The notes below the pieces were generated by a model. That model did no database searches. It was given only the letters and a program-made list of their open reading frames with translations, and had not been told where the DNA came from. From the IMG/VR virus record IMGVR_UViG_3300031965_000077, positions 1-40,563 of that record: a stretch of 40,563 nt of DNA; one strand, written 5' to 3'. This DNA comes from a virus (taxonomy: Duplodnaviria > Caudoviricetes). The position numbers were made by a program, and so were the translations under genes. Of this stretch, positions 16,135 to 40,563 are shown piece after piece; positions within the stretch are counted from its first letter, which is position 1; each line of letters starts with the position of its first letter.

Positions 16135-16532
16135 AATATAGCCGTTAAAACTCCCGCATGGGTAATCCTCGTTCTTATTTTTTTCCTTCTTCCAATCTCC
16201 CAAGCAACTACTCGGTGAGTTCCGTCGAGTAACTTAAGTTTCCCAACTTTACCGCCTCTATTTGTTCTGGTGGTGAGAACAACAAGTCCCTGAGCGACAG
16301 GCAACCACTCAGATACGAAGTTGTTTATATATCTTTCCTCATACCCTTTATCTTCTAGGTCTGCAATCTCTTTTGCGGTGAGACTCCCGTGACCGGGGAA
16401 GTTGCTGACGTTTTTTATGTCCACCAACCTCGCTAGAGGTTTGATTGAAAACTCCCAATGAACACCCCGGCTTAATTCTACTGGTCTGGGGTGGGGAAAT
16501 ATCCACCCGTTTATTTTCTCTGTAGTTATCAT
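16131..16532 (-). CDS. ParB/Sulfiredoxin-like domain protein
   Basis: LKLLDGTHRVVA (DGxHR) motif. Confidence 0.6.
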   Translation of the reverse strand: MITTEKINGWIFPHPRPVELSRGVHWEFSIKPLARLVDIKNVSNFPGHGSLTAKEIADLEDKGYEERYINNFVSEWLPVAQGLVVLTTRTNRGGKVGKLKLLDGTHRVVAWEIGRRKKIRTRITHAGVLTAIL

Positions 16533-17893: not shown

Positions 17894-18044
17894 ATTTCTT
17901 TAATGGGTTCCCCCTTAACCAATACACCATACCAAAGTCTTTTCTTCGCCTGTTGTACATAACAGAACATGGGTGAGAACAGAACTTCTGTTCCTTACGA
18001 CCCTTCTTAAACTTCTTTTCACATTCCTTACACTTAGATTCCAT
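17886..18044 (-). CDS. 52-aa zinc-finger mini-protein (not in ORF track)
   Basis: MESKCKECEKKF...QKFCSHPC...; overlaps both flanking GT genes. Confidence 0.6.
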   Translation of the reverse strand: MESKCKECEKKFKKGRKEQKFCSHPCSVMYNRRRKDFGMVYWLRGNPLKKYD

Positions 18045-19812
18045 TTGATATAACCTTCTTTTTAGAACTTGGTACGTTAGGGGCGTATTCCGAGTGGAAC
18101 TTGCTCTTAACCATCAGCTTATCAATAGAATCAATCTGTGGTAAATGAGAGTTTTCCCCGAAGACGTCGTGTAAATCTACTAAGAACCTTTTGGCACTAA
18201 TCCTTCCCGCTAGGTTTGATCTTCTCCATTGAATGAATGTACTAAATTTGTCTCTCACGTTAAATGTATAGAATGGTTTGTATAAAACGCCGTTGACCTC
18301 TATTTCCTTTTCGGGATCTCCGTATACGGTAACTTTATACCCTAGCTTGGTCCACTCCTCGGCCAGACGTATAACAGCCGTTTCTGACCCTCCTATACCC
18401 TTCTTTAGAGAGTCCCCGTCCCATTTCTCAAAGTGATTACCCCCAAAGTTAGCGTAGTAACAAATCTCCTTTTCTCCCCAAAGCTTGGGTTTTGAGTACC
18501 TTACTAGATACTTAGCCGCAAAGGGGAGGTTCTTGATGGCCGGGGGAAGTGACCCCAAGAGTCTTGGGACTAGGTTCTCCTGCTGTATCTCCACCAAATA
18601 TCGCATGAGTTTGTGGGCGTGTTCGGCGGCTACGTCAAGGTCAGTCTGCCTGGCTACCTGCTCCAGGATCTCCCTATTCTCTTTGGTGGGGAGGTACTCG
18701 TATAACACCTTAATGGCTTGGTACGCCCGTCTTATATCTCTTTTAGCAAAATAGTAATAATTAAAAGATAGTTCAGCGAGTAAGGTTTTCATCTCAAGAA
18801 TATTAGACATTGAGGATGTCCCCTCGCTAAAATCCAGCCTACGCCCAACATCCATCCAATGCCTCATCTCTCTGTATTGTCCTAAGTTAAAGCAAATTCT
18901 TGATAGGTGAAAGTATAAAAGTGGTGAATAGGGGTACTCTTGGATGGCTTTTAACAGAAACTCCTTAGCCTTCTCGTTCTCCCCTAAAAGCCCTAAACAT
19001 TTACTCATAAGGGAACACGCCACCGCCCTCTCCTCATCCCACCCACTTTTGGATAGATACTCCTCGCCCATCTCAACACACCTCTGTAGTATTTCGGGAT
19101 CCTTATCCTCAGCGTAAATTTTCATAAGATAAAGTATAGTCCTAGGATCGGCTTCTCCCTGTTTTCTCTCGTCCTCCAGCTCCAATTCCAGTAACTCCCT
19201 GTTCCTTAACATCCTTTTGTCCATGTCCTCTGGGGACATATCCCTATCCGCCCCCAAGTGTAGCCATGCGATAGGTTCTTTCTCCGAATACTTAACCCCT
19301 GCGTAAGAGTAGGTATCGGGGTCGGTAGGAACGGGAGTCTCATGGATTCTTTTCTTCCAAACGGTAGCTCCGGGGCGAATAAGTCTCTCCCTGTTCTGCA
19401 CCATCTCCTCCCGAACGAAAGTGTTGATAGAAGGCTCCCCGTTAAACTCCGCACCATAGATATAGGTGAAGAACATACAGTCCAACCCTCTTTTCTTAGC
19501 AATTCCCGCGTAGTTTCTTAAGAGTTCGGGACTCATTATTACATCGTCCGAGTCCATCCATAATATATAGTCGTATCCTTTGGGTACTTGGGAAAAGTTG
19601 AAGTTTCTTTGTTCTGCAAAGTTCTTATTCCAATCTAGGTGTGATAGCTGTATTTTATCATGCCCAGAAGCCCAAATTTCGGTCTCTGTTGAGCTTTTGC
19701 CGTTAGTTGTGATAAACACCCCATCTACGTGCTCGTAAACGCTTAAAACGGCGTTTGTGAGCGACTCTAACTCCTCGTCACCTTTGGTTATTAGACAAAG
19801 CGCGAGTCTCAT
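18034..19812 (-). CDS. GT2 + TPR + GT4 N-terminal half; protein glycosyltransferase-like
   Basis: NFAEQRN, WMDSDD, RERL, IHE; TPR-like helices; GIGGSETAVI.LA...VTVY, DLHD, KSKFH, ISNGI. Confidence 0.88.
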   Translation of the reverse strand: MRLALCLITKGDEELESLTNAVLSVYEHVDGVFITTNGKSSTETEIWASGHDKIQLSHLDWNKNFAEQRNFNFSQVPKGYDYILWMDSDDVIMSPELLRNYAGIAKKRGLDCMFFTYIYGAEFNGEPSINTFVREEMVQNRERLIRPGATVWKKRIHETPVPTDPDTYSYAGVKYSEKEPIAWLHLGADRDMSPEDMDKRMLRNRELLELELEDERKQGEADPRTILYLMKIYAEDKDPEILQRCVEMGEEYLSKSGWDEERAVACSLMSKCLGLLGENEKAKEFLLKAIQEYPYSPLLYFHLSRICFNLGQYREMRHWMDVGRRLDFSEGTSSMSNILEMKTLLAELSFNYYYFAKRDIRRAYQAIKVLYEYLPTKENREILEQVARQTDLDVAAEHAHKLMRYLVEIQQENLVPRLLGSLPPAIKNLPFAAKYLVRYSKPKLWGEKEICYYANFGGNHFEKWDGDSLKKGIGGSETAVIRLAEEWTKLGYKVTVYGDPEKEIEVNGVLYKPFYTFNVRDKFSTFIQWRRSNLAGRISAKRFLVDLHDVFGENSHLPQIDSIDKLMVKSKFHSEYAPNVPSSKKKVISNGI

Positions 19813-27910: not shown

Positions 27911-28369
27911 TTAATTACCCCCTCTCAAGAGAAAAAAACCTGCTACCACCATAAGCCCCACCAGAATAAGCAAAGTTATACACCCAGCTATGAAGTCTTT
28001 TCGGCGTTCTTGTATTCGGCGGTCTACAGACTCTCTGTCAACTCCCCACCTTCTTCTTTCCGCTTCCAACCTCTCGGCAAATTCCTCGTCTCCGTCGTGG
28101 TTTGCAGCAGCCAGAACGGCTTTACCGTAGTCGCTAAGCTCTTCCTTCGGTTTTATACTATCTCTCTTATTCCTCTCAACAAGCCATTCCGAGTCTATCT
28201 GCCATTGGGGTTTTATACTATCTATTTTCTCCGCTATTGTGGGTACGCCCTTATACTCCAAAGTAGTTTCCCCAAAATCAACACCTTCCTTAAACCCCGC
28301 TTTCTCTAGCGCACGCTTCAGCTTCTTTAACGACGCCCATTTGTTTACAAGCCAAATCTTCTCAGTCAT
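27911..28369 (-). CDS. Hypothetical protein with C-terminal TM helix
   Basis: 152 aa; internal DSIKP duplication; hydrophobic C-terminus. Confidence 0.55.
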   Translation of the reverse strand: MTEKIWLVNKWASLKKLKRALEKAGFKEGVDFGETTLEYKGVPTIAEKIDSIKPQWQIDSEWLVERNKRDSIKPKEELSDYGKAVLAAANHDGDEEFAERLEAERRRWGVDRESVDRRIQERRKDFIAGCITLLILVGLMVVAGFFLLRGGN

Positions 28370-28587
28370 GTTTGTTTTCCTTCAGATAGGCTTTTTAGAT
28401 ATTCCTGTGTGGCTTGTCCCCCGTCCATATACTTATACCCCAGACTGTTCTCGGAAAAGTATATCTGTGCCTCATTTGACCATTTGTAACCCAACCCACT
28501 CATAAACCGACTTATATCGCTTGTCGTATGACCAGAAGGTACTGCGTTCATTTGTTCTTTGCTATTCAGGTATATCTTTTCAGTCAT
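28366..28587 (-). CDS. Hypothetical protein
   Basis: 73 aa, ATGA-coupled; shares MTEKI start with neighbour. Confidence 0.55.
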   Translation of the reverse strand: MTEKIYLNSKEQMNAVPSGHTTSDISRFMSGLGYKWSNEAQIYFSENSLGYKYMDGGQATQEYLKSLSEGKQT

Positions 28588-28644
28588 GTTAGTCTTTTAA
28601 TAATTTCCATATCCTAACCCTCCATAACGGGCTAGGGATAGAAA

Positions 28645-29046
28645 CTACTCGTTTACTCTTCCAGCTTCTAAGATTGGTAATCCCGCCTCTGTTGGCAAGT
28701 ATATTACTGTTTTGTCATTTAGATTGGTCTGCTGTCTAACCCACAAATATCTAATATACTGCTCGGTTAGAGTTCCCCCCTCAATCTTTATAGCTTCTGC
28801 CGCACCTTTTGCCCTCTCAACTTCAGATTGTGCATTTAGCTTCTCGGATTCAAGGTTGGCTTGTGCCTCCTCTATCTGGATTTGTCTGTTCCATGTAGCC
28901 TCAGCCAATTCAGCCCTACCCCTCATTTCTCGACTCCAGACACTGTATTGCGGCATTACCCACATAAGGAGTGCTACAAAAGCCACTACCAAGGCTGCTA
29001 TTAAAACCCAACCAAACCCATTTAAGTTACCGTATTCATCATTCAT
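28645..29046 (-). CDS. Membrane-anchored coiled-coil protein (Band7/SPFH C-terminal-like)
   Basis: TM, P.Y.VW....GRAELA, AEVERAKG.AEA, YLPTEAGLPILEA-type tail. Confidence 0.7.
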   Translation of the reverse strand: MNDEYGNLNGFGWVLIAALVVAFVALLMWVMPQYSVWSREMRGRAELAEATWNRQIQIEEAQANLESEKLNAQSEVERAKGAAEAIKIEGGTLTEQYIRYLWVRQQTNLNDKTVIYLPTEAGLPILEAGRVNE

Positions 29047-29132
29047 TTATAACACCCCCTTTTATTCTTTTAATTAGTTTCATGTTCTTTTTTCAGCCCC
29101 GTAAACATAATAAGTGTTTTCATATTCTTCTT

Positions 29133-29296
29133 GGAGGCTCTAGTGGGCTAGGGATTGAACCTAGCACGCCTTGGGGACGGTTACTCGAGTTTACCCCATA
29201 CCATTTGCAGTTTGTCGGCTCTAACCCGACACCAAGCTCCTTACTTTCTCCCGCTTGGCACTTGCGTCTGTACTTCCGCCACCACTAAAGCACTCC
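29133..29296 (-). ncRNA. tRNA-like RNA with ~98-nt multi-hairpin insert replacing anticodon/variable arms
   Basis: Acceptor TTAGTGG/CCACTAG, Leu-type TGGCGGAA..AGACGC D arm, T arm GCTAGG-TTCAATC-CCTAGC. Confidence 0.65.
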
Positions 29297-29456
29297 CAAG
29301 AGAGTTGTTGAGTGGTTTGAGGCGACCCAACAACCCTCGTAGCAATACTCTAGTCCTCAACCTTTTTCTCTTTGAGGCTTTTTAGGTAGGTTTCCACTAA
29401 TCGTAACTCAATAAGTATCTCAACCCCATTCTCCATTTCCCGTTGGTTAAACCAAG

Positions 29457-29669
29457 TCAAAAACCCGCCCTATCCTTTAAGTGCCTTTTATAGCCATCAA
29501 CAAATTCAATAACAGCTTCCCGTTCTCGTTGGTGGAGTAGGTTTTCTACATATTTCCATAAATCATCTATTGCCAAAGTTATTTCATTGTCGTGCTTGTA
29601 GGATAACTCTAGTGCCTTTTCTTCAAACCTTTTCCTTATTTCTTCTATTTCCTGTTTGTCTTGTTTCAT
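29457..29669 (-). CDS. Hypothetical small helical protein
   Basis: Start MKQDKQ, ATGA-coupled; REREAVIEF motif. Confidence 0.55.
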   Translation of the reverse strand: MKQDKQEIEEIRKRFEEKALELSYKHDNEITLAIDDLWKYVENLLHQREREAVIEFVDGYKRHLKDRAGF

Positions 29670-29860
29670 TGTTTTTTCCTTTTTCTCCATACCTCTCTGT
29701 AGACCTTCCAATCAAACTTTTTACACCTCACACCCCCACAGTAATAGCAAGACTCTTCCAACCTTTTCACGCCCTCAGCGCCAATAAATAAGAACGGAAA
29801 GTGGGGATCCACGAATATACCATCCGCAGATATTTCGCCCACGGTGATGTGGTCAGCCAT
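29666..29860 (-). CDS. Hypothetical protein
   Basis: Start MADHIT; CYYC..C. Confidence 0.5.
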   Translation of the reverse strand: MADHITVGEISADGIFVDPHFPFLFIGAEGVKRLEESCYYCGGVRCKKFDWKVYREVWRKRKKQ

Positions 29861-29862
29861 AC

Positions 29863-30081
29863 TCACCCCTTTTTCCTTTCCTGTAGGTAGGTTTCCAACA
29901 TTTCCCTCACGGTTTTTGCTACTACCCATTGGTTATCGTAAAAGTCCGCAAACCCCCGAAAAGCCCCCTCCACCACCCTGTCCTCACGGGATTGGAGTTC
30001 TTGTATTAAGTCCTCGCTGTCATGGTAGAGTTTATATGCGTGAACATGTTTACTAACGATTTCCTCTATAGACTTACTCAT
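29863..30081 (-). CDS. Hypothetical small helical protein
   Basis: Start MSKSIEE with AAGGAA RBS. Confidence 0.55.
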   Translation of the reverse strand: MSKSIEEIVSKHVHAYKLYHDSEDLIQELQSREDRVVEGAFRGFADFYDNQWVVAKTVREMLETYLQERKKG

Positions 30082-30337
30082 CGTTTCCTTCCGATAGTTT
30101 AATGGCTTCTTCCAACCTACCCTTAGTTGTCTTGTATGCCAAAAGCAACCCCTCCGCCTGTTTTCTCTTCCCGTTGCCAAAGAAGGAAGTTTTAAGGTTC
30201 TCGTTGGATAAGAGCTGTCTTTCCCAACTATCTATCATGTGGTTCAAGAACGAAAGCATCTGTTTCTCCACAGGCTCTTCCCAACTCATTTTAGGCATTA
30301 CATATGCAATTTTCCCCATATCCTTAGACTTACTCAT
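30074..30337 (-). CDS. Hypothetical protein
   Basis: 87 aa, start MSKSKD with identical RBS block. Confidence 0.55.
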   Translation of the reverse strand: MSKSKDMGKIAYVMPKMSWEEPVEKQMLSFLNHMIDSWERQLLSNENLKTSFFGNGKRKQAEGLLLAYKTTKGRLEEAIKLSEGNDE

Positions 30338-30506
30338 CGTTTCCTTTCATCAACGAACTTCTAATCTTCTTGCACCCGAAACACACCTGAGTGAGGGCGT
30401 CGTGAAAGGTCGAGTAAATTGCCTGTTGTGTATGCCTACCCTCACACTTCTGGATATGTTTTCTTACACCTTCTTGTGTCTCAATAAACTCGTAGGTAAA
30501 TGTCAT
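30330..30506 (-). CDS. 58-aa hypothetical protein (not in ORF track)
   Basis: MTFTYEFIETQEG...CFGCKK...GNDE; coupled at both ends. Confidence 0.55.
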   Translation of the reverse strand: MTFTYEFIETQEGVRKHIQKCEGRHTQQAIYSTFHDALTQVCFGCKKIRSSLMKGNDE

Positions 30507-31222
30507 CTTTTACTCTCTTTCAATACTTTTAGGTTCTTCAAATGCCCCAAACACCACTTGTCTAGTTTTTTATAGGTAGCAGCCCAAGCAGCCCAAGCAG
30601 CCCAAGCAGCAGCCTCAGCAGCCTCAGCAGCAGCCTCAGCAGCCCTAGCAGCAGCCCTAGCAGCAGCCTCAGCAGCAGCCTCAGCAGCCCTAGCAGCAGC
30701 CCTAGCAGCAGCCCTAGCAGCAGCCCTAGCAGCCCAAGCAGCAGCCTCAGCAGCCCAAGCAGCCTCAGCAGCCCTAGCAGCCCAAGCAGCAGCCTCAGCA
30801 GCAGCCTCTTGATTTTTCTTTGTTGGGTTTTTAGCGTATCTTTCGGCTGCTTCTATCGCCTCTCTTGGCCTTTTATCATTTGGGTATTCTTTTTCAAATT
30901 CTTTTAACACAAGACTTGCGGCGTAAATGGCAAATAACACACTGTCTGTTTTAGTCCAAGCGTAGGTTTTAACCACTCGCATTTCTTCCCAGACCTCTTT
31001 ATCTTCTTCTGATAAATGTTTTCCTTTAACCTCGACTTCGGCTAATATCTCACCTTGAACATAGGAAAACGCCTGATAAATACCCTTTGAGCAGTGAAAA
31101 CCCGCACTACAGAGTTCTAAATCTCCGTCAAATGTGCACCACTTGCCTAACCTCCATTTGTGGTTTCCGTTTTCTGACCTATTTCCTTCTCGTATGAACT
31201 TGTATCTTCTTTGTATGTTCAT
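30503..31222 (-). CDS. Phage protein with LC..GFH domain, Imm5-like helix pair and Ala-rich AAW/AAE/AAR repeats
   Basis: ELCSAGFHCS, YPNDKRPREAIEAA, repeat tract. Confidence 0.75.
   Translation of the reverse strand: MNIQRRYKFIREGNRSENGNHKWRLGKWCTFDGDLELCSAGFHCSKGIYQAFSYVQGEILAEVEVKGKHLSEEDKEVWEEMRVVKTYAWTKTDSVLFAIYAASLVLKEFEKEYPNDKRPREAIEAAERYAKNPTKKNQEAAAEAAAWAARAAEAAWAAEAAAWAARAAARAAARAAARAAEAAAEAAARAAARAAEAAAEAAEAAAWAAWAAWAATYKKLDKWCLGHLKNLKVLKESKR
30578..30808. repeat. Coding 9/12-bp tandem repeats (GCT)2-3-NNG
   Basis: gcagcccaa / gcagcctca / gcagcccta units. Confidence 0.95.
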
Positions 31223-31350
31223 TTTCTCCTCCACCATAAATAAGTAAGACCGCTAGGCTCCACGATTTCCCCACAAGTACTGCAATAAACCACTGTTCCG
31301 TAGTCCCTAGTCCTTATATCGTGTCCTAAAATCTTGCAGATAAGTTTCAC
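31219..31350 (-). CDS. 43-aa Zn-binding prophage-type protein (DUF1660-like; not in ORF track)
   Basis: GTG start, KLICKILGH...YCSTCGE. Confidence 0.55.
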   Translation of the reverse strand: MKLICKILGHDIRTRDYGTVVYCSTCGEIVEPSGLTYLWWRRK

Positions 31351-31364
31351 ATTTTTATATTACC

Positions 31365-31688
31365 TCATTTGTCAAGCTTGTCAAGGGCTAATTTTCTCTC
31401 CCTAGCCCTCATAAAATTATCTAAATCATCAGCCCCCCGTACGTCTAGCATACATTCCCCGCAGAGTTTATATCTCTCTCCCCCGTGCCTTAGTAAGTGA
31501 ACTTTTCTATGCATATGCTCAAACTGCTTCCACCGGCCTTCCAGAAACATCATCGACTTGCCTATACCAATGCCGCAGAAGTCGCAGGTGTTGGGCATTA
31601 TCCTTTTTAGAAGGTAGCTTCTGTGCTTTCTGCTATCCTTAGGCAGATTAGAAAATCTTTTACCTTTTGTGTTTATCTCCATTGTCAT
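31365..31688 (-). CDS. Zinc-finger protein
   Basis: CDFC...CGEC. Confidence 0.6.
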   Translation of the reverse strand: MTMEINTKGKRFSNLPKDSRKHRSYLLKRIMPNTCDFCGIGIGKSMMFLEGRWKQFEHMHRKVHLLRHGGERYKLCGECMLDVRGADDLDNFMRARERKLALDKLDK

Positions 31689-32101
31689 TCGGTCTTTGCT
31701 GTCAATGATGTAACTAAATCCCTATACTTATCCCTTATGCCTATAAGCTCCTCCGTCTGCCACTTGTGGGTTTGCTTCTTTCTGATCCACATTTCCTCGA
31801 CCTTTTTAAGCCCGTACTTCTTAATCATCCGGGGGGTGTACTCGTCCTTATTCCCGGACTTCATAACATTACATCCGTAACAAGCCGCGTGAACCGCCTC
31901 CTCGTCAAAGAGAATAGTTGCTCCCCTACCATCAACAAAATGAGAGGCTTGTAGCTTCCCAAACGGGTAAACCCTATCACAAGTGAAACATTTGCCTCTC
32001 TCTGCGGTTCCGGTAGTCGCTAGACAATCCCTCAATCTTATGTATTTACTAAACTCTGTCCAGGCGGCCTTTTTAAGCTGTGGTATAGTTCTTTTCCTCA
32101 T
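31685..32101 (-). CDS. ninG: NinG/Rap-like recombination endonuclease
   Basis: FSKYIRLRD, CFTC, QASHF, FDE....AC..CN...SGN...Y. Confidence 0.88.
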   Translation of the reverse strand: MRKRTIPQLKKAAWTEFSKYIRLRDCLATTGTAERGKCFTCDRVYPFGKLQASHFVDGRGATILFDEEAVHAACYGCNVMKSGNKDEYTPRMIKKYGLKKVEEMWIRKKQTHKWQTEELIGIRDKYRDLVTSLTAKTE

Positions 32102-32240
32102 AAGTAACCCCCTGGGCAGTCGTTTTGGTCAGAACCCCCGAAAACGGAGGAATTATCCAACCATACGTCCTGCCCTTGTGGGCTTTTGTCGAAGGCAGTC
32201 TGTTTAGTCTCTACCGCCAGGCAGATGGCCTTCCTAAAAC

Positions 32241-32367
32241 TCACAAATCTACAGTTCCGTTCTCTTTACACTTCCAGCATCTCCCTTTCTTATTAGTCGT
32301 ACTCTTTCCCAGTACCCTTACATTTAGGGCATACTGTCCTAAACCGAGTATTCTTTTCGAGCAACAT
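32241..32367 (-). pseudogene. Frameshifted DnaJ-type zinc-finger mini-gene
   Basis: CPKCKGTGK in one frame, CWKCKENG in the +1 frame; span 127 nt. Confidence 0.4.
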
Positions 32368-32596
32368 TATCATCTCCTATAACCCACTTAAAGGGCTTCT
32401 CGGACTGTGGCACATCCGTTAATTCCCAATCAACCGACCTATCTTTTTGGGGTATTGAAACTATCTGATAGCCCAATTCGCGCAATTCGCGCAGTCGGGT
32501 TGGAGCTTGTTTGATTCTCATCTCGTAAGTAGCCTCGTAGGAGTTCAACTTACCAACCTTTAACCTTTCGAGGATTCGCTGTTGTTGTGTTTTCAT
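32339..32596 (-). CDS. Winged-helix DNA-binding protein
   Basis: TQQQRILERLK....S.EA......A.TRLRELRELGYQI. Confidence 0.75.
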   Translation of the reverse strand: MKTQQQRILERLKVGKLNSYEATYEMRIKQAPTRLRELRELGYQIVSIPQKDRSVDWELTDVPQSEKPFKWVIGDDNVARKEYSV

Positions 32597-32910
32597 CAGT
32601 CCTTGCCCTCGTTTCTTTCGTCAGCTTCTTCTTTGGCGTCCATTACAAGCTCCATGTCGTGTTCATTATTGTACCCATCAAACGAGTTCAACATTGCGTC
32701 CATCTTGTCCCTGAACCCTTGAAAAATCTCTGCTAAATCTTCCTTGTACATCAATCCTTGATTCTTCCACTCTTTTAACCCGTCAAACCCAATCCCTACA
32801 ATCCTAAAGCAGTCAGCAAATCCCACAGTCCCGTCTTCCGCACCGTTCCTGTATATCTTGATGTCTTCGTCCTCGTAGATTAGATTTCCTTCCTTTGCTT
32901 TCCAGCTCAT
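32596..32910 (-). CDS. Hypothetical acidic protein
   Basis: Start MSWKAKE, ATGA-coupled. Confidence 0.55.
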   Translation of the reverse strand: MSWKAKEGNLIYEDEDIKIYRNGAEDGTVGFADCFRIVGIGFDGLKEWKNQGLMYKEDLAEIFQGFRDKMDAMLNSFDGYNNEHDMELVMDAKEEADERNEGKD

Positions 32911-33449
32911 TTGTATAAATTCTCCTCGTAACAAGGTGTCCCGTGAGCAAACCACGCGTTCCAAGTCTTTCCGGAAGCTTCAAACATTTGGTGAGCAACA
33001 TCCGTGTTCTTGTACGGATCAAGCATTGCAGTCAGCCCCCCTACTTCTGGCCAATGTTGAGAATTTATCTGGAATAGCCCGGCGTCTGCTCTCGCGCTCC
33101 AACCAACGGAGGGGTCATTTACGCCAAGTGCGTCTTCTTTCCAACCGCTCTCACATTGAACAATAGCTAGAGCCTCTTTACAGCGTTCTTCGAATTTCTT
33201 ACAAACATACTCTTTAATCGGCGTATCTACTGTAACGGGGTATTCTAGTGTTACTTGAACAATCGGTGTTAAAAGAGGTCTTTTCTCAACCCTAAACCAG
33301 CCGCTTTCTACATTTACTTGTAGATACGGAGGAATTATTTTGTTAGAATCGTACCAAGAGCTTACTGCCAAAAAAGCACCAAAGAGAGCACCACCTACTA
33401 TTAGAAACATGGCTCCTATTAAGACTTTTCGGCGGGGGCTCTTATTCAT
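32907..33449 (-). CDS. Membrane-anchored lytic transglycosylase (SLT/lysozyme-like)
   Basis: N-terminal TM; AIVQCESG, DAGLFQIN, DPYKN...A, W.AW. Confidence 0.85.
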   Translation of the reverse strand: MNKSPRRKVLIGAMFLIVGGALFGAFLAVSSWYDSNKIIPPYLQVNVESGWFRVEKRPLLTPIVQVTLEYPVTVDTPIKEYVCKKFEERCKEALAIVQCESGWKEDALGVNDPSVGWSARADAGLFQINSQHWPEVGGLTAMLDPYKNTDVAHQMFEASGKTWNAWFAHGTPCYEENLYK

Positions 33450-34492
33450 GCTTCCACCGTCAAAAGTTTATACTCGGATAATTCCATTGAGTGTTTCCAA
33501 GCAACAGCCCTATCTGCCAAATCCGTCATGCCAACCTCAAAGATAGTTGGGTCAACCCCCGAAACATAAACCCTTCCTGTACTCGGACAGATGTACCTAG
33601 AAAAATAGGCTTTAGGGTTTGACTCAAAGAGATTTTCTATTGAGTAGAGTTCGTTTCCTCTCTCGGATTTATCAATAAGTTTAGCGTCTAATTCTTCTAA
33701 AAGATTCTCCGCACCTCTTATTTTGAGAGCGACCATTCTTTGTTCCATATTCTCGATCTTTAGTATCTCTTTAGCCGTGATTGTTTTTGAGACTATTCTT
33801 TCCCAGAGGGCTTTCTTAAAATTAACCCCAAACAGATAATAAAATTCCTTGCCACCTTTCCACCTAATTGCGGGTGATTTTTCCGAGTGGTATCTATTTT
33901 CCACGTCAAGTAGGACTAGGGGTGTAGGGACAATATAGAGCGTGTCCTCCCATTCAACCCTGTACCCAGCACCAGCTTCTTTGCCTTGCATTAAAAGCTC
34001 ACAATATTCAAGATACTTCAAGTCGTTCTCGTTTGGTTTTATCCCACCATTTTTGTCGGGTTGCTCACAGTATTCAAATTCAAATACATACCAGTCAAAG
34101 TCGTAATCGATTGCACTCCCTGCACTCCCTGCACTCCTTGCACTCCCTGCACTCCCTGCACTCCTTGCACTCTCTGCACTCCATGCACTCCCTGCACTCC
34201 CTGCACTCCATGCACTCTCTGCACTCCCTGCACTCCATGCACTCTCTGCACTCCTTGCACTCCCTGCACTCCATGCACTCTCTGCACTCCATGCACTCTC
34301 CGCTACCTCGTCCCACTTCTTATCGAATATATCCTTGAACCATATAACTTTTTTGGGTCTTAGAAGCCCGAACAGGTCGTAGGTTTTCATAAGGCATTCC
34401 GTGGCAGTCTTTTTATCTAGCACAAAGCCAAGGCGTTCAATGTTCATGCACTGTCTGTCTATTAGCCTTTGGGTCGCAAGGGAGTAGTCCAT
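33446..34492 (-). CDS. DUF6745-like protein with internal SA[W/E/G/R] repeats
   Basis: [43 protein letters not shown]. Confidence 0.75.
34112..34300. repeat. 21 x 9-bp coding tandem repeat
   Basis: tgcactc+cc/ct/tc/ca units. Confidence 0.97.
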
Positions 34493-34830
34493 TAGTCGAC
34501 GACCTTTCTAATTTCAGCACCAAAATAGTCAAACTCTCTTTCGGTAATAACTTTATAAACTCCGGGTTCGAGGGTTATTGTTTTGTGTTCCTCGTGGCTA
34601 ACTGTGCTGTCTTTGAGGACATTAAGATACCTAAAACCCTCAAACTCGGCAACGGCTACATTGCCGACCAGCTTATGGCTATGCCCTGTAACCTCACCTA
34701 AAGCGAGGGCGAAACTTGTTACTTTTTTACCTTTGACGGGCATTTTATCAACCCTACGGAAGGATAAATCACCATGCCTTGCTAGATTGTTTGTTTTTAG
34801 CATTTTCCCTTTCAATAACTTATTAATCAC
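34492..34830 (-). CDS. Conserved His-rich phage protein, usual partner of DUF6745-like genes
   Basis: RHGDL, LALGEVTGHSH, HEEH..I.L.PG.Y, RE.D. Confidence 0.75.
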   Translation of the reverse strand: MINKLLKGKMLKTNNLARHGDLSFRRVDKMPVKGKKVTSFALALGEVTGHSHKLVGNVAVAEFEGFRYLNVLKDSTVSHEEHKTITLEPGVYKVITEREFDYFGAEIRKVVD

Positions 34831-35081
34831 TTTTCCCTCACAATCGGCGAAACAAGCCCCTCATAATTAGCACTAAGACTCGCTCCTAGTGTCGCCATGA
34901 ACAGGAGAAACATAATGCTCCAGAAGATTCTCGCCCCTAGAGTCCATCTATAAGCCTCCTTAACCGGAGCAGGTCTTCCAGCCATTTCTTTTAAGTGCGC
35001 CTCTCTTCCTACCTTGTACCTTAGGTCGTACCCCCCGTCCTTTTTTATTCTATATACCTGATCCCCTGATTGAACAATCAT
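34827..35081 (-). CDS. Small membrane protein
   Basis: KKDG..DLRYK motif plus one TM helix. Confidence 0.55.
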   Translation of the reverse strand: MIVQSGDQVYRIKKDGGYDLRYKVGREAHLKEMAGRPAPVKEAYRWTLGARIFWSIMFLLFMATLGASLSANYEGLVSPIVREK

Positions 35082-35662
35082 TTTTCAACCTTTCCGTCAA
35101 AATTAGGTACTTCGCTTGGATCGACAATCTCCTCGCCAGGATCATAACCCTCAAAAGGGTCTTCCCCCCCAAAAAGAGCTTCCAGGTTAATCTTCTCTAT
35201 GTCTCCCACGTTCTCTTTGAACGCCTTGTGTGGGGAGGGGATAGTGCTGTACTCCGTGTCCAAACCCTCGCCAGTTCTTTTAACGGTAATATCAAACCCT
35301 TTTGGGTCGCCCCAAGCATCATCGCTAACGATGGCGTTTATAGGATTCATTATAGTAGCTTGTGTGAGTTCTAGTATCTGCACTCTTTTAGCCTTGTAGT
35401 TCCATACTGGAAAAGCCCAGAAATGCTTTGCTTCCCTTTTGGCCTCGTTTGAAAGAGCCATGAGGTCTCTGTTTCTGACTGGTTTGCCTCCTTCCCCGGC
35501 TCTGTCGCTTCTACCTACGACATCACCATTCTTATCAACCCAGTACTCCCAGCCGGTTATTGCTGAACCTAGTACTCTAAACTTATTATCCCCTTCCTCA
35601 AATCGCATATAATTGTTCTGCGTTGCCGGGGGTGTGTACCCTGTTGGCAAAAAGTTACTCAT
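35078..35662 (-). CDS. Putative single-stranded DNA-binding protein
   Basis: Y..F.EGDNK.RVL, W..PVWNY, ILE.TQ.TI, GDP..FDI.V.RTGEG.DTEY, acidic tail. Confidence 0.65.
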   Translation of the reverse strand: MSNFLPTGYTPPATQNNYMRFEEGDNKFRVLGSAITGWEYWVDKNGDVVGRSDRAGEGGKPVRNRDLMALSNEAKREAKHFWAFPVWNYKAKRVQILELTQATIMNPINAIVSDDAWGDPKGFDITVKRTGEGLDTEYSTIPSPHKAFKENVGDIEKINLEALFGGEDPFEGYDPGEEIVDPSEVPNFDGKVEK

Positions 35663-35889
35663 TATCTTATCCTCCTTGCAAAATTTTTACTCATTAAGTC
35701 TTTGGTTACGTCTTTGTCCCGGCGCTGCATACTAGCAACTCTCCCTGTGACCTCTCCGAGCACCTCTGCCCTTTTTCGTGCGTGTTCTTTATCGGACAAC
35801 CACCCAAGGTCGTGGTAGACACCAAGTGCCGCAAGTCCGTTGGGGTCTGTACCCCTAAGTCTTTTTTGTGCTAACTGGAAAAGTGTCAT
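35662..35889 (-). CDS. Hypothetical protein
   Basis: 75 aa, coupled to neighbours. Confidence 0.5.
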   Translation of the reverse strand: MTLFQLAQKRLRGTDPNGLAALGVYHDLGWLSDKEHARKRAEVLGEVTGRVASMQRRDKDVTKDLMSKNFARRIR

Positions 35890-36017
35890 CTTAGGCTTTC
35901 TGGAATGTCAAACCTTCTAAGAGCGTTTATGTATTCCACATCTAAATTAAGTGCGGTAAGTTGCATCTCCTGCAAGGAGATTACGTAATTTATTATGACT
36001 TGTGCTTTTGTAATCAT
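35886..36017 (-). CDS. 43-aa leaderless first gene of early operon (not in ORF track)
   Basis: MITKAQVIINY...PESLR; ATGA overlap downstream. Confidence 0.6.
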   Translation of the reverse strand: MITKAQVIINYVISLQEMQLTALNLDVEYINALRRFDIPESLR

Positions 36018-36052
36018 GTAGAAATACTAGCCTGTGTTGCCCGAATTGTCAA
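36018..36052 (-). promoter_or_regulatory. Sigma70-type promoter, leaderless
   Basis: TTGACA-N17-TAGTAT-N6-ATG. Confidence 0.8.
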
Positions 36053-36239
36053 GCACCTGTTCTTGTTGATCTACCGCCGTTTTTATCTTCAGGTAGGTAT
36101 CTTCCGGGACGATTCTGAGGTTATTTTTGATTCTTGAAAGATAGGAGACTGAGTACCCTAACACTTCTGAAAGCCGGGTTAGGTTCACGCCTTCAAGGAG
36201 GTCTGCGTCTTCGATGATTTTATTGGTTCTATACTTCAT
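36027..36239 (-). CDS. XRE/Cro-type HTH regulator
   Basis: NLTRLSEVLGYSVSYLSRIKN; start MKYRT lies 6 nt below TATAAG of a TTGACT-N16 promoter. Confidence 0.8.
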   Translation of the reverse strand: MKYRTNKIIEDADLLEGVNLTRLSEVLGYSVSYLSRIKNNLRIVPEDTYLKIKTAVDQQEQVLDNSGNTG

Positions 36240-36283
36240 GGGACACTTATACCACAATTACCAATATAGTCAAGATACTAAGA

Positions 36284-36361
36284 TGCCGACGGAAGCAAGG
36301 AACAAGTTCCAAGCAACCATCGGCAAGAACAAAGTATACGATACTGACTATACCTTGTCAA
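36284..36361 (-). promoter_or_regulatory. Sigma70 promoter followed directly by a 42-nt hairpin
   Basis: TTGACA-N17-TATACT; then GCCGATGG/CCGTCGGC stem, symmetric TTGCTT loops, GGAAC/GTTCC. Confidence 0.7.
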
Positions 36362-36374
36362 GCAATCTCTATTG

Positions 36375-36446
36375 TTATAAACCAAGTCTAGTCAAAATGT
36401 AGATAACACCTGCAATAATACCTGCAAATAATTCTATAAATTTCAT
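36375..36446 (-). pseudogene. Remnant of C5-cytosine DNA methyltransferase N-terminus
   Basis: MKFIELFAGI (motif I, FxGxG start) then unrelated sequence and stop after 23 aa. Confidence 0.5.
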
Positions 36447-36455
36447 ACATTGTTC

Positions 36456-36512
36456 TGATGGAGATGGCAGAATAAACTCCGCGTCCGGCATAGCCGTCAA
36501 ACTAACATCCCT
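36456..36512 (-). ncRNA. Miniature tmRNA-like RNA (tRNA-like domain only)
   Basis: AGGGATG..TTTGAC-GGC TAT GCC-GGAC-GCGGA GTTTAT TCTGC-CATCTCC-ATCA; G3:U70 pair; own promoter. Confidence 0.65.
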
Positions 36513-36547
36513 AACTTATTATAACAACTTACCGCTAAAGATTTCAA
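36513..36547 (-). promoter_or_regulatory. Promoter of mini-tmRNA-like RNA
   Basis: TTGAAA-N18-TATAAT with extended TGn; predicted +1 at 5' end of acceptor stem. Confidence 0.7.
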
Positions 36548-36692
36548 CAGGACTTTGTGTATATGGTTTTTGTGCCGGAACTTCGGGGGGAAACTTCTTA
36601 AAATACCTATCTAAAGCTACGGTTAATTCGCCCGACTTTGCTAGGCGTTGGTAATTTGATTTAATCCACTTTAGCGCTGTCTGCTGATCCAT
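36519..36692 (-). CDS. 57-aa hypothetical protein (not in ORF track)
   Basis: MDQQTALKWIKSNY...IFSGKLL, overlapping upstream gene end. Confidence 0.5.
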   Translation of the reverse strand: MDQQTALKWIKSNYQRLAKSGELTVALDRYFKKFPPEVPAQKPYTQSPVEIFSGKLL

Positions 36693-37029
36693 TTAGTTTC
36701 CAATTCAAATAAACAATAGCGTTAAGATTAAAAAGGACCCCTGCAAAATGATCCTCGTCATCCTCACCAGAGAGTGCCTGTACCATATGTCTAAAAGCCG
36801 AGGATTTGAATCTTTCCAGCTCTTCCTCAGAGTTAGCTAGTGTCCAGTTATCCCGACCATACTTTTCAGCACCGCGTGTCATAAGTTCAGCCCAACGAGT
36901 CAAAAGTTGTTCTTCATAGGGCATGGGAGCAAGACATAGATAAAAGTCGGGCTTACCGTCTTGTAAATCCCTTCTCATACCACTTGCATAGTCTATTCTT
37001 TTACCCGAATCTTTAGTCTTGTATTTCAT
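36661..37029 (-). CDS. dATP/dGTP diphosphohydrolase-domain protein (DUF5664-like)
   Basis: G..RD..DGKP, GAEKYG.DNW, SAFRH, EDH.A...FN. Confidence 0.82.
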   Translation of the reverse strand: MKYKTKDSGKRIDYASGMRRDLQDGKPDFYLCLAPMPYEEQLLTRWAELMTRGAEKYGRDNWTLANSEEELERFKSSAFRHMVQALSGEDDEDHFAGVLFNLNAIVYLNWKLNGSADSAKVD

Positions 37030-37032
37030 AAG

Positions 37033-37120
37033 TTATACACACAAGTTATCCACAATTCCAAACGGCACATTTAACCGTCAAATCAACACATCTAATAAAG
37101 TTATCCACAACCTGTCCACA
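37033..37120. promoter_or_regulatory. Cluster of four co-oriented DnaA boxes; candidate replication origin
   Basis: TTATACACA 37033, TTATCCACA 37046 and 37101, CTGTCCACA 37112; AT-rich tract at ~37150-37200. Confidence 0.7.
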
Positions 37121-37476
37121 ATGCTTTAAGACACACCTAGGGATTGCTACTAGCTTTATTATTTAATCAATTGCTTCAAACAATAATGCTAAGAAACATT
37201 AAAGCCCTTTGGCTTACATCCACCGAGGTTCTAAACTTCGGCGACTCGGACACTGTCTGGTACTTACTTATTGCAAGAGCTTCCATCTTTACCCAAGACG
37301 CTGGCTCGTTTAAGAGTACTCCCGATTCCCACTTGTTAGCAGGTGTAACAAAATGTTGAGACACTTCGTTATATCTACTTACAAATTAGCACTCCCTACT
37401 TTGGAGCGCCTTTTATTAACATCGAATCCACACCAAATTCAATCATAAATCAGATTAGCAAGGGCGCTCGTCTAAG

Positions 37477-37938
37477 TCAATACTTTCCTAGTAAATGTTG
37501 TTTTTTGTGGCAGACAGCACAGAGCCAGATCACGCTTAGCGGTTTTGTATAATCGTTGTGGTGGGCCTGAATAAATCTAGGCGACCCGCAGGACGAGCAA
37601 ACACTAGGTCTTTCCAGCACTCCTCCGTCAATAGCGGACCGAACCTTCCTGTGCGCCCTCCTTTTATCGGGGTTTTCCAAACGCCACTTTCTAGAGTAAA
37701 GTACACAGGATTTCTTATACAGCAGGTTGTCTTTTCTCCACGCCTTGTAATACGCTTTTCTTTTACTCTTATTCTTCAAATAATAGGATTTGACGTAACC
37801 CTTAAATTTAGCCTTGTTCTCTGGTTTCTCTAGCCACTTTCTGTTCCGTTCAGCCAAACAGACCTTGCAGGAGGAGCGATTGGAAACATAGAAATCTTCC
37901 GAAGTTAGATCGTCTCTGAGACAGACCTTACAAATCAT
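37477..37938 (-). CDS. HNH endonuclease with N-terminal zinc finger
   Basis: CKVC..CKVC; RAH..V..AI..G.L.RP..CSSC...AHHNDY.KPL.V.WLC..CH...H. Confidence 0.88.
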   Translation of the reverse strand: MICKVCLRDDLTSEDFYVSNRSSCKVCLAERNRKWLEKPENKAKFKGYVKSYYLKNKSKRKAYYKAWRKDNLLYKKSCVLYSRKWRLENPDKRRAHRKVRSAIDGGVLERPSVCSSCGSPRFIQAHHNDYTKPLSVIWLCAVCHKKQHLLGKY

Positions 37939-37973
37939 GAGGGTATTTTAGAACAGAAAACTATGTTTGTCAA
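37939..37973 (-). promoter_or_regulatory. Sigma70 promoter, leaderless
   Basis: TTGACA-N17-TAAAAT-N6-ATG. Confidence 0.8.
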
Positions 37974-37989
37974 CATTAGTTTGGGACTA

Positions 37990-38018
37990 TTGACATGCTA
38001 TGGGGATTTTGATAGAAT
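37990..38018 (+). promoter_or_regulatory. Divergent plus-strand sigma70 promoter
   Basis: TTGACA-N17-TAGAAT with extended TGn. Confidence 0.75.
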
Positions 38019-38024
38019 TGGCAA

Positions 38025-38124
38025 GTTACTATCCCGCTTAGAGTCACACCAACCCTAAGCACCAAGAGGACACGTAATTTTAAGAGATGGGCCTGGAGAT
38101 TGATTCCCCAGGCTCATTTCGTTT
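38025..38124 (+). ncRNA. Candidate ~100-nt small RNA
   Basis: Bounded by consensus promoter and terminator; internal GCTTAG/CTAAGC hairpin; no ORF inside. Confidence 0.5.
38084..38124. terminator. Probable bidirectional terminator hairpin
   Basis: GAGATGGGCCTGG...CCAGGCTCATTTC directly after the phosphoesterase stop. Confidence 0.7.
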
Positions 38125-38902
38125 ACATAACCTTTCCCTCATAAACCACCGCCCCGTCAACAATAGGATAGACCGTTGGGTAGGATTTTTTGCCAACAAA
38201 CTCAATCGTTGTAAATCCTTGCGCCCAGTCAGGGTTTGAGACATACCGGGGATTGGGTGGGATGTTACACAAACACCCATTCTCAATCCACCATCTCGTT
38301 ATACCTAACTGTGTTCGGAAAATCAAGGCTAACTTGTGAGAGTGTCCTTGAATCCCAGACATACCAGTTCTATCTATCATCGCATGAGCTGCGTAACCCG
38401 CTTTAATTCGAGCGAGTGTTCCGTGGTTGAACACCACATCCTTATGGTGTACGAACCTGTCGTAGGGGATAAAATCTATCCCGAAGTCCTTTAGCTGAAA
38501 GAGGTGCGGAATTGACACCACCTTCTCACCTAAAATTTCAAGATTCGCAAGTTCCGAGGCGATTCTACCAAGGTACTTTATAAGACGCTGTTCGTGGTTG
38601 CCTTCATACCAGCTAATCTTGACCTTGGGGTTGGCTTTATGGGCGATGTCGGTTATTTGTTTCAACACTTTTCGCCCTACCAATATTTCGTTTTCTAGCG
38701 TCCCATCGTCATAGGGGTCTTTGTCGTATCTACTCACGGGAGTGAAGTTGACAAAATCACCCAACAGATGGATTACATCGGGCTTATACTCTTTTATGAA
38801 TTTAAGCACGACTTCCAGACACCTCAAGCTGTGGTCTGGAACTTGAAAGTCAGACAACACTAGGTGTTTCTCCATTCCAGACCTCCGTTTTGGTTTAGTC
38901 AT
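38123..38902 (-). CDS. Calcineurin-like metallophosphoesterase
   Basis: LSDFQVP, LGDFVN, EGNHE, NHG, GHSH. Confidence 0.9.
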   Translation of the reverse strand: MTKPKRRSGMEKHLVLSDFQVPDHSLRCLEVVLKFIKEYKPDVIHLLGDFVNFTPVSRYDKDPYDDGTLENEILVGRKVLKQITDIAHKANPKVKISWYEGNHEQRLIKYLGRIASELANLEILGEKVVSIPHLFQLKDFGIDFIPYDRFVHHKDVVFNHGTLARIKAGYAAHAMIDRTGMSGIQGHSHKLALIFRTQLGITRWWIENGCLCNIPPNPRYVSNPDWAQGFTTIEFVGKKSYPTVYPIVDGAVVYEGKVM

Positions 38903-38976
38903 AGTTTTGTGTACAAATTAAATGTACATACCGGCGTACTACCGGTAGGCAGGTCTCTCTCCTTTAGAAAGACCTG

Positions 38977-39171
38977 TCAGTTGTGGAAGTAGAAGCCTGA
39001 ATAGGAAAGCGTCAAGATAGCGTTTCCTTTTTCACGAATCGAGTCCAAAAACTCGTTCATAAACTCCATAGCTTCCCACTCATCTCTTGCGTAAAGCTCC
39101 GCTTCTCCGCTTGTGCGTTGCCCTCCGCTAACTGGATGGTACGAATATGTAACAACCAGTTTGTACTTCAT
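38977..39171 (-). CDS. Hypothetical protein
   Basis: 64 aa, strong GGAGG RBS. Confidence 0.65.
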   Translation of the reverse strand: MKYKLVVTYSYHPVSGGQRTSGEAELYARDEWEAMEFMNEFLDSIREKGNAILTLSYSGFYFHN

Positions 39172-39182
39172 GTTGGCCTCCC

Positions 39183-39254
39183 TTAGTAGTCTAGCCAGTC
39201 AAAGAGAAGCATCCCGCAAAACACCCCAAAGATGAAGATTAGGATTTTTCTCAC
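39183..39254 (-). CDS. 23-aa hydrophobic peptide (not in ORF track)
   Basis: AAAGGAGG-N5-GTG; RKILIFIFGVFCGMLLFDWLDY. Confidence 0.55.
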   Translation of the reverse strand: MRKILIFIFGVFCGMLLFDWLDY

Positions 39255-39321
39255 AACAGCCTCCTTTGTTAGAGTGCCAAATCCTACCCACGATGAGACG
39301 CCGTAGGCAGGGTTCAATACT

Positions 39322-39540
39322 CTAAAAACGTGTCAAACCGCGTGTAAGAGACTCATTTTCCGTTTCTTTCCCAAGCAAGTGTAGGTATTTGTCAACAAAT
39401 CTTAGAAGTGCAATTAACCCGGAAATGCCGACAAGCCTCCAGTCCACCGCTCCCGCGCTTAGCCCATCTATAACAACGGGAATCGCTGCAAGTAGCGAGA
39501 CTCTTAATCCTTCTATTAGTGCTTCTTGTAAAATGCCCAT
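39322..39540 (-). CDS. Holin-like membrane protein
   Basis: Two hydrophobic segments, VDWR, LRFVDKYLH...GLTRF; just downstream of endolysin. Confidence 0.65.
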   Translation of the reverse strand: MGILQEALIEGLRVSLLAAIPVVIDGLSAGAVDWRLVGISGLIALLRFVDKYLHLLGKETENESLTRGLTRF

Positions 39541-39545
39541 ATTTT

Positions 39546-40385
39546 TCACCGCCCTATCAGAAAGTAAATAAATGCTCTCCATCTGCTGTATGTCTGAAGA
39601 TTACCATCCGCTTGTTTTCTTAATTTCTCGTTCTCCGCTTCTTGTGAGCGTTTTTCCTTAGAAAGACGTTCTGTAGCAGTCCCCAGAGCTTCATTTTTGC
39701 CCCTAATTTCAATTATATCCCCTTTTAGGGTATCTGCCTCTACTTTTAACTCGGCGCCCGTTATACGCTCGTTTTTTAACTCTAAAGCATAAGAGGCGTT
39801 TTGTTCGTTTGCCAAAGAGAGGTTTTTGGTAAGTTGTTCAACCTGGGTATCTTTTGCTTCCATATCAGTAGCGTACTTGTCCTTCATTTCTTCGTACTTG
39901 TCGTCTTTATCCTGTCTCTCCTGTAGGGCTTTGTTTCTCTCGTCTATTGCAACAGCAAGTTTCTTCTCGCAATCATCATCGGTTTCGATTTTAGGTGTAA
40001 TCCAACCAATAACTCCGTTCCAGTTGGTTCTTGTTGCGGTCTTTGGGGCTGAACCTAGAGGAAGATTTTGCTCAAATATTGTGTAGGAATCCTTCACAGG
40101 GTCAGACTTAACTATAATTCCTGTGTGTCCAAATCCACCACCCCATGTTTTATCAAAGAACATAATATCCCCGGCCTTAGGGTACTTTGTGAGACTGTTT
40201 GGTGTCTTAAACCACTCAAGTTCAGAGGCGTTGTAATAGATATCACGGGCATTTCCCCAAATATGAGAAAGCCCCAAGTCCTTGATGTAAACCATGACAA
40301 GCCCAACACACTCGCCCTTATTAACGTCAGTATTACCTACGTTTCTAACCCCTGTGTATTTTTTGATAAATTCTTGTAAAGTCAT
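39546..40385 (-). CDS. Endolysin: CHAP domain plus long coiled coil
   Basis: GECVGLV..Y, GNA, P.AGDI, GHTGI, FEQN, GWI.P; heptad C-terminal half. Confidence 0.88.
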   Translation of the reverse strand: MTLQEFIKKYTGVRNVGNTDVNKGECVGLVMVYIKDLGLSHIWGNARDIYYNASELEWFKTPNSLTKYPKAGDIMFFDKTWGGGFGHTGIIVKSDPVKDSYTIFEQNLPLGSAPKTATRTNWNGVIGWITPKIETDDDCEKKLAVAIDERNKALQERQDKDDKYEEMKDKYATDMEAKDTQVEQLTKNLSLANEQNASYALELKNERITGAELKVEADTLKGDIIEIRGKNEALGTATERLSKEKRSQEAENEKLRKQADGNLQTYSRWRAFIYFLIGR

Positions 40386-40563
40386 ATCTACCTGCCTTTA
40401 TACTTACCCATCGTTTTTTCCCCAATACCACCTATTGCTTGGTGATTTGTTCTACTAAAGTAAAATCCAATAACCAAGAAGAATGCGTTTCGAAGCTCCT
40501 GATTCTCAATCCCCGCAACTCCGCTGTATATTACAGCAAAAGTAATACCCAAAGCAATACTAG
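40132..40563. repeat. Right copy of terminal overlap (contains holin 3' end and endolysin 5' end)
   Basis: Aligns to 1..432. Confidence 0.95.

Follow-up and report, generated by a model that had tools for sequence, protein, structure and literature searches.

Phage-encoded tmRNAs that consist of the tRNA-like domain only (TLD-only tmRNAs) could either rescue ribosomes or block their rescue, and a small locus in the virus record IMGVR_UViG_3300031965_000077 (Caudoviricetes) bears on that question. The record, whose full 40,563 nucleotides (nt) constitute the window referred to below, is 40.5 kb long and 95% complete and encodes a terminase, a portal, a PF17236 capsid protein, and a glycosyltransferase cluster. 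On its minus strand, at 36512-36456, lies a 57-nt, phage-encoded, intergenic element that we identify as a tmRNA derivative comprising the tRNA-like domain only. An initial annotation of positions 36456-36547 had proposed just such a derivative with its own promoter, which our analysis supports, and its sequence, coordinates, and parts were as described. The element is a real feature of this genome; what it might do for the phage is the question addressed here.

The 57-nt RNA forms the three helices of the tmRNA tRNA-like domain, with G3·U70 and A73 present, and 15 of its 16 stem pairs are intact. The 5' strand of the acceptor stem (36506-36512, minus strand, as are all parts of the RNA) carries the G3 of the G3·U70 alanine determinant and begins with A1, which cannot pair with C72. 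It is followed by a 10-nt D-loop (36496-36505) that has AG where GG is usual and ends in the conserved UUGAC, and by a connector hairpin, GGC-UAU-GCC, with a 3-nt loop and 3 bp (4 bp with a closing C-G pair), after which comes the conserved GGAC (36483-36495). The T-arm of 16 nt (36467-36482) has 5 bp, a closing A53:U61 pair in which both bases differ from the usual G-C, and a noncanonical 6-nt loop with G54 and U56. The final segment (36456-36466) comprises the acceptor 3' strand with U70 (36466-36460), the discriminator A73, and then UCA, so the last four bases are AUCA and CCA is not encoded. Only 9 nt separate the D-loop from GGAC, and the mRNA-like domain with its tag frame and pseudoknots is absent. 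The initial annotation had held that a 3-bp hairpin replaces this whole domain and that G3:U70 and the discriminator A are kept; the former was borne out, with the C-G pair added to the connector, and both determinants were found. By fold, covariance model, and descriptor, the whole RNA (36456-36512) has no anticodon arm, no tag frame, and no pseudoknots. A cloverleaf with a D-stem and an anticodon arm, as in tRNA-Ala, was absent; ARAGORN reported 0 genes, and the fold also disagrees with it. Both the minimum free energy structure and the centroid are the three-helix fold described, at -15.4 kcal/mol. This is not unusually stable (z, -0.77; equal folding in 45 of 200 shuffles), and fold stability is thus no evidence for the element.

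Standard tools overlook such genes. ARAGORN and Rfam, run on the window and on a 221-nt region, reported nothing at the element, which did not reach the RF00023 gathering cutoff and gave no match at E values up to 10 (36380-36600), nor did RF02544 match there. The Infernal search with tmRNA models that the initial annotation had suggested therefore came back negative for both Rfam families. We also built a covariance model, R1, from 38 other sequences with the element left out. Its top match in the window was exactly 36456-36512, with 23.4 bits and a rough E value of 0.003; the runner-up scored 12 bits. Intact members of the class score 65 to 75 bits under R1, and the element's 23 bits fall inside the range of tRNA cross-matches (20 to 37 bits), although the element has no anticodon arm. 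Patterns describing the element matched none of 100 window shuffles. A structure descriptor requiring the acceptor, G3·U70, the D-loop end, the connector, and the T-stem had a single match in the window, and resampled sequence gave none, whether from 50 versions of the window or from 2.1 Mb of relatives. As the descriptor was composed with the element in view, the R1 result is the more independent of the two. A contig assembled from DNA runs (X1) was identical base for base, but it is probably from the same sample and may be the source of the record; the element was not independently covered by contigs from three DNA sequencing runs, and among the sequencing runs searched no RNA run was listed with the phage sequence.

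TLD-only tmRNAs of phages proved to be common in viromes, while in print there is essentially one example, from Mycobacterium phage DS6A. A generic pattern scan of IMG/VR, which used tmRNA end motifs and a gap of up to 33 nt, gave at least 120 loci (about 250 estimated). Among the matches listed there were at least 87 distinct sequences of 61 to 81 nt to A73, with ARAGORN overlapping 2 of the 87; the RF00023 cutoff was passed by all 20 of these mini-tmRNAs ("minis") tested. Across 38 aligned minis, pairing holds in 98.5% of cells and two-sided change is seen at 10 of 18 pairs; the pattern itself partly fixed the conserved columns. When the scan was repeated with no constraint on position 1 or the T-arm, at least 120 loci yielded 90 distinct sequences, 72 of which passed a stem filter. 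Chance matches make up most of the 18 rows that failed; six seem to be genuine minis parsed wrongly, and each of these has G1. Among the matches listed, the 72 structured minis had G1 in every case, D-loop GG in 67, a canonical T-loop in 64, and an encoded CCA in 35, so that a missing CCA is normal for the class and A1 is not. C56 was present in 155 of 155 phage minis, a count partly fixed by the search patterns, and is U in the element. At 57 nt, the element is also the shortest of the phage minis compared, the next being 62 to 64 nt among the matches listed.

Several other observations concern this class. In eight minis (L472, L407, L427, L423, L417, L499, L511, and L408), a D-loop AG is accompanied by a T-loop of GGC or UGC in place of the GG-UUC combination, which, as judged from the sequences, looks like tertiary covariation of the elbow. 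Unannotated, full-length matches of about 80 nt occur in the cultured Streptomyces phages pSt2308 (PV588686.1:33356-33435) and Shaeky (MT701595.1:42932-43011), which offer tractable systems for the class. Our literature search, which covered mainly papers available without subscription, returned no account of such a variant or of a broader family of phage mini-tmRNAs. The available part of a report on the 2025 tmRNA database gives 9 sequences as "standard, no CDS," including plastid genes of about 65 bp (PMC11915505).

The element itself is a singleton. In IMG/VR, a pattern for its 16-nt T-arm found 0 copies, a pattern for its 4-nt D prefix found 7 loci, all canonical minis, and a loose short-D-loop pattern found 27 matches, all 27 with stems missing. 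The sole match in JGI metagenomes was the phage's own sequence (L255); these searches of the two collections may pass over records nearly identical to the window. Conservation in relatives, which had been suggested as a check, was thus empty in both collections. Relatives of the neighboring PF18909 gene numbered 18 loci, none syntenic, with R1 matches in 3 of 17 records, two of them ordinary minis of about 80 nt; the one terminase relative was a fragment with no R1 match. Capsid relatives in IMG/VR numbered 33 at 58 to 83% identity, mostly fragments, and a CDS-less tmRNA-like gene was found in 1 of the 33, of which only 2 were at least 90% complete, with the early module barely in common. That relative, G021 (capsid identity, 73%), has a different aberrant CDS-less tmRNA-like gene of 105 nt with a 10-nt D-loop (L190:1456-1560). 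The gene lacks GGAC, and its connector stem is long (z, -4.1); a partial tandem duplicate directly precedes it, and a hydrophobic open reading frame (ORF) of 28 codons begins at its CCA end.

The capsid also points to a host. Capsid relatives in GTDB comprised 5 loci in 4 metagenome-assembled genomes (MAGs), with 4 of the 5 loci (3 of 4 genomes) in Patescibacteria bins and the fourth genome an archaeal bin. Two of the bacterial MAGs are titled Saccharibacteria or Patescibacteria, and the third, G052, is titled Gammaproteobacteria and shares its class with genomes of the Patescibacteria phylum. All three encode SmpB and a full tmRNA, and none of the five MAG loci has a mini-tmRNA. Patescibacteria are therefore the likely host group, which we can only infer, since MAG bins may contain co-binned phage contigs.

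Because the loops of the element depart from those of most phage minis, it is also important to set them beside the cellular tmRNAs of Patescibacteria. By the Rfam consensus, other bacteria keep a canonical D/T elbow. In 99 Patescibacteria tmRNAs, D-loop GG was present in 75 and a canonical T-loop in 72. In the class of G052 (L375-L402 and L263), the canonical elbow is largely lost, D-loop GG and a canonical T-loop each being found in 6 of 29 tmRNAs and CCA in 9 of 29. Positions 2-7 and 66-72 of the element's acceptor have the commonest form in this class (24 of 29), and its loop features have precedents there (A53:U61 in 2, G54 in 6, and T-arms of 15 to 16 nt in 3 of 28 tmRNAs, one misregistered row having been left out). 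By its loops the element is nearest to this class, at 7 edits from the closest tmRNA against a leave-one-out maximum of 6 within the class. The loops and the missing CCA thus need not reflect decay, though they fall just outside the class range. C56, U in the element, is kept in 26 of 28; the D-loops are 11 to 14 nt long compared with 10 nt in the element; and G1 is present in 127 of 128 Patescibacteria tmRNAs (the remaining row is incomplete). Two draws of 401 Patescibacteria genomes were searched for a cellular tmRNA with the exact T-arm of the element, and none was found. Most of the element's oddity is accordingly typical of the lineage, with A1, U56, and the 10-nt D-loop private to it. 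The caveats of the initial annotation shift in weight as a result: UCA in place of CCA is milder, with 35 of 72 minis encoding CCA and DS6A doing without, as is the 6-nt T-loop, given the 16-nt T-arms in Patescibacteria, and A1:C72 stands. The literature search, with the same coverage, found nothing on the tmRNA loops of Patescibacteria.

Shortened tmRNA-like genes are also seen in the genomes of Patescibacteria. In five MAGs of the class of G054 (L326:464-600 in G160, L327 in G119, L328 in G129, L330 in G138, and L332 in G150), the only RF00023 match at an E value of 1e-20 or better is a conserved tmRNA-like gene of 133 to 137 nt, which leaves no room for the usual mRNA domain. An SmpB match was found in 0 of these 5, compared with 5 of 5 genomes with a full tmRNA. 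These MAGs may represent a lineage that lacks SmpB and the tag and has kept a short alanine-type RNA, the rival explanation being MAG incompleteness. Second tmRNA-like genes of 82 to 159 nt stand beside a full tmRNA in four other Patescibacteria MAGs (L329 in G148, L331 in G163, L333 in G069, and L334 in G093).

The element is preceded by a sigma-70-type promoter (36518-36547, minus strand) with a -35 box TTGAAA (36547-36542), an 18-nt spacer containing TG (36526-36525), and a -10 box TATAAT (36523-36518). It matches the sigma-70 consensus at 11 of 12 positions and has the TG extension as well. There are four 11/12 sites in 28000-40563, and one of them adjoins the 5' end of the RNA. A36512 is the sixth base after the -10 box and G36511 the seventh. 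At two other strong promoters of the phage (37973-37938 and 36052-36017, minus strand), the ATG of an ORF sits at the seventh base, which suggests leaderless mRNAs in this phage. By this spacing, transcription of the element may begin at G36511, position 2. The promoter proposed by the initial annotation is thus confirmed as a sequence, while its placement of +1 at the first stem base may be off by one; C72 is unpaired with either start.

In minus-strand order, the gene on the 5' side encodes a PF18909 dATP/dGTP diphosphohydrolase-like protein (37029-36661), and the gene beyond the element on the other side is a helix-turn-helix (HTH) gene (36239-36027). Between the RNA and the HTH gene lies a hydrophobic micro-ORF of 23 codons (36375-36446, minus strand) that starts 9 nt after the RNA; cotranscription is possible, and its membership in the same unit is uncertain. 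It has no Pfam match, including none to a methyltransferase. At the DNA level, its first ~34 nt have weak similarity to the 5' ends of phage C5-methyltransferase genes (88% over 34 nt; best E value, 0.004). When 36400-36600 was searched by blastn against GenBank phages, the best 20 of 56 rows were all on the micro-ORF and none on the RNA. The micro-ORF could encode a small membrane peptide, or it could be what is left of a truncated gene. No terminator-like site was found after the RNA.

Elsewhere in the window, a second strong promoter (36361-36333, minus strand; 11/12) heads the region 36361-36284, and directly after it comes an interrupted hairpin of very high stability (36325-36284; -25.5 kcal/mol; z, -8.1) with no Rfam match, possibly another small RNA or an attenuator. 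A glycosyltransferase/epimerase-like gene cluster lies within the virion module (10926-19812) and is partly kept in relatives, and two early proteins (30503-31237 and 33446-34492, minus strand) have low-complexity Ala-rich or Ser/Ala-rich repeats.

The reading that we favor, and to which we give about an even chance, is that the element acts as an uncharged RNA that competes for host SmpB and so dampens trans-translation during infection. What is seen is the three-helix fold, motifs of tmRNA type, a promoter sequence, an unpaired 1:72 end, and homology to the DS6A-type class. An open 1:72 end reduces EF-Tu binding. The RNA would be transcribed from the adjacent promoter with a start at position 1 or 2, which would make an RNase P cut unnecessary, in a Patescibacterium with a comparably loose elbow in its own tmRNA. 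SmpB would contact the intact 3' half of the D-loop, the connector helix, and GGAC. The open end would bar both AlaRS and EF-Tu, and the RNA would thus act by titration and not by entering ribosomes. For the phage, the benefit could be less tagging and degradation of its products or an altered ribosome rescue in the host. The initial annotation had offered either a decoy that titrates SmpB or untagged rescue, and the first of these gains from the precedent of DS6A: as cited from Mao 2009 in the portion of PMC4131195 available to us, the DS6A-type RNA inhibits tmRNA whether it is chargeable or not.

A bolder version of this reading, which we advance tentatively, is that tmRNA has been stripped, in a phage of Patescibacteria, to an SmpB trap of 56 to 57 nt built for that purpose: leaderless and hence independent of RNase P, open at 1:72 and so closed to charging and delivery, and matched in its loose elbow to the host lineage. 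If true, this would be the minimal natural anti-trans-translation RNA. With the presumed SmpB face kept and 1:72 lost, it would be a natural version that separates the rescue and blocking functions, and it would provide a minimal RNA that inhibits trans-translation, which is an antibacterial target. That value is limited, because the variant is a singleton and may be decaying.

Decay is the alternative that survives best, and we consider it possible if somewhat unlikely. The element would then be the pseudogene of an ordinary DS6A-type mini, with G1A, the shortened D-loop, and the T-loop changes as damage and with the promoter surviving for the sake of the micro-ORF. Its singleton status in IMG/VR and JGI metagenomes fits this, as do A1, set against the G1 of every structured mini and nearly every Patescibacteria tmRNA, U56, loops just beyond the natural range, and a low R1 score and absent Rfam match where all the minis tested pass RF00023; the C5-methyltransferase-like start of the next ORF could also mark a decayed locus. 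Yet a decaying gene would not be expected to keep 15 of 16 pairs, including a double change in the T-stem, nor to have a promoter placed at the end of the RNA, and most of the loop changes have precedents in cellular tmRNAs of Patescibacteria. The micro-ORF, for its part, encodes what looks like an intact hydrophobic peptide that Pfam does not link to methyltransferases, and the layout recurs in G021.

It is improbable, in our estimate, that the element is instead a chargeable mini-tmRNA which, after CCA addition, enters stalled ribosomes with SmpB, takes over the chain, and lets it go without a tag, a route that has been proposed for mitochondrial tmRNAs lacking a CDS. An unencoded CCA is common in the class and would be no obstacle; EF-Tu binding would be weakened by the open 1:72 end. 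All of the bacterial alanine determinants as given in the accessible part of PMC9976931 (A73, G2-C71, G3·U70, and G4-C69) are present in the element as G2:C71, G3·U70, G4:C69, and A73. The same source describes G1-C72 as conserved in all prokaryotic tRNA-Ala and G1·U72 as blocking E. coli AlaRS, and the broken 1:72 pair, together with G1 in all 72 structured minis, argues against alanine charging and hence against the untagged rescue proposed by the initial annotation, which needs it. In the part of PMC3488237 at hand, moreover, an unpaired 1:72 is linked to the resistance of initiator tRNA to peptidyl-tRNA hydrolase, so a chain transferred to such an RNA might not be released.

We think it quite doubtful that the tRNA-like fold serves as a cis-acting 5' leader, stabilizing the transcript of the 23-residue membrane peptide or steering its processing. 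The lack of a terminator-like site after the RNA would suit a leader, and a hydrophobic micro-ORF starts within 10 nt of the RNA both here and in G021, compared with 1 of 129 other minis and 19 of 2,000 random positions. This RNA-plus-hydrophobic-peptide layout in two phages is only a hint; most of the random positions lie in structural genes, and this region may simply be rich in small hydrophobic ORFs. By eye, the peptides are not evidently similar, and a leader would have no need of tmRNA-specific motifs. Finally, a leftover att site or a chance resemblance is highly unlikely: tmRNA genes are frequent integration sites (according to the part of PMC11915505 available) and the R1 score is modest, but the 5' and 3' halves are both present, in register, and paired, which with the absence of an integrase largely refutes a plain remnant of the host ssrA 3' end as raised in the initial annotation (no tyrosine integrase by PF00589 and none among 55 proteins by PHROGs in a 95% complete record), a host-like match to the 3' half is absent from 401 genomes of the best-matching class, and the chance controls gave no matches.

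One of the closest known systems is the mini of phage DS6A (JN698994.1, 28478-28560), which scores 65.2 bits under R1. Like it, the element is phage encoded and intergenic, has the acceptor, D-loop, connector, and T-arm with G3·U70 and A73, and lacks both a tag frame and an encoded CCA. The stemless D-loop ending in YGAC, the connector helix, GGAC, the T-arm, and the absence of an anticodon arm, which mark the DS6A type, are all found in the element. The two differ in length and score (57 nt and 23 bits versus 83 nt and 65 bits) and in the connector, a 4-bp hairpin in the element and a longer stem with an inner hairpin in DS6A. In the element, furthermore, the A1:C72 end is open, and the D-loop GG and canonical T-loop are absent. 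The elbow of the class is GG with UUC, or AG with GGC/UGC, with C56, whereas that of the element is AG with a GUU loop and U56. Lacking G1:C72 and this elbow, the element is a DS6A-type variant and not a plain member, and by its sequence it would likely work as a DS6A-type member does.

Cellular tmRNA (RF00023) shares with the element the acceptor with G3·U70 and A73, and in the class of G052 an unencoded CCA and loose D- and T-loops are typical as well. The element differs in having no mRNA-like domain, tag, or pseudoknots, no RF00023 match, another base in place of G1, and U56. Also comparable are the CDS-less organellar tmRNAs of jakobid and other mitochondria (RF02544) and of Mallomonadaceae plastids, whose genes of about 65 bp (per the portion of PMC11915505 available) are near the element in size; all have a tag-less tRNA-like domain. 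These are the organelles' own genes and are thought to help in rescue, whereas the element belongs to a virus, would compete with the host's complete tmRNA, and is unpaired at 1:72.
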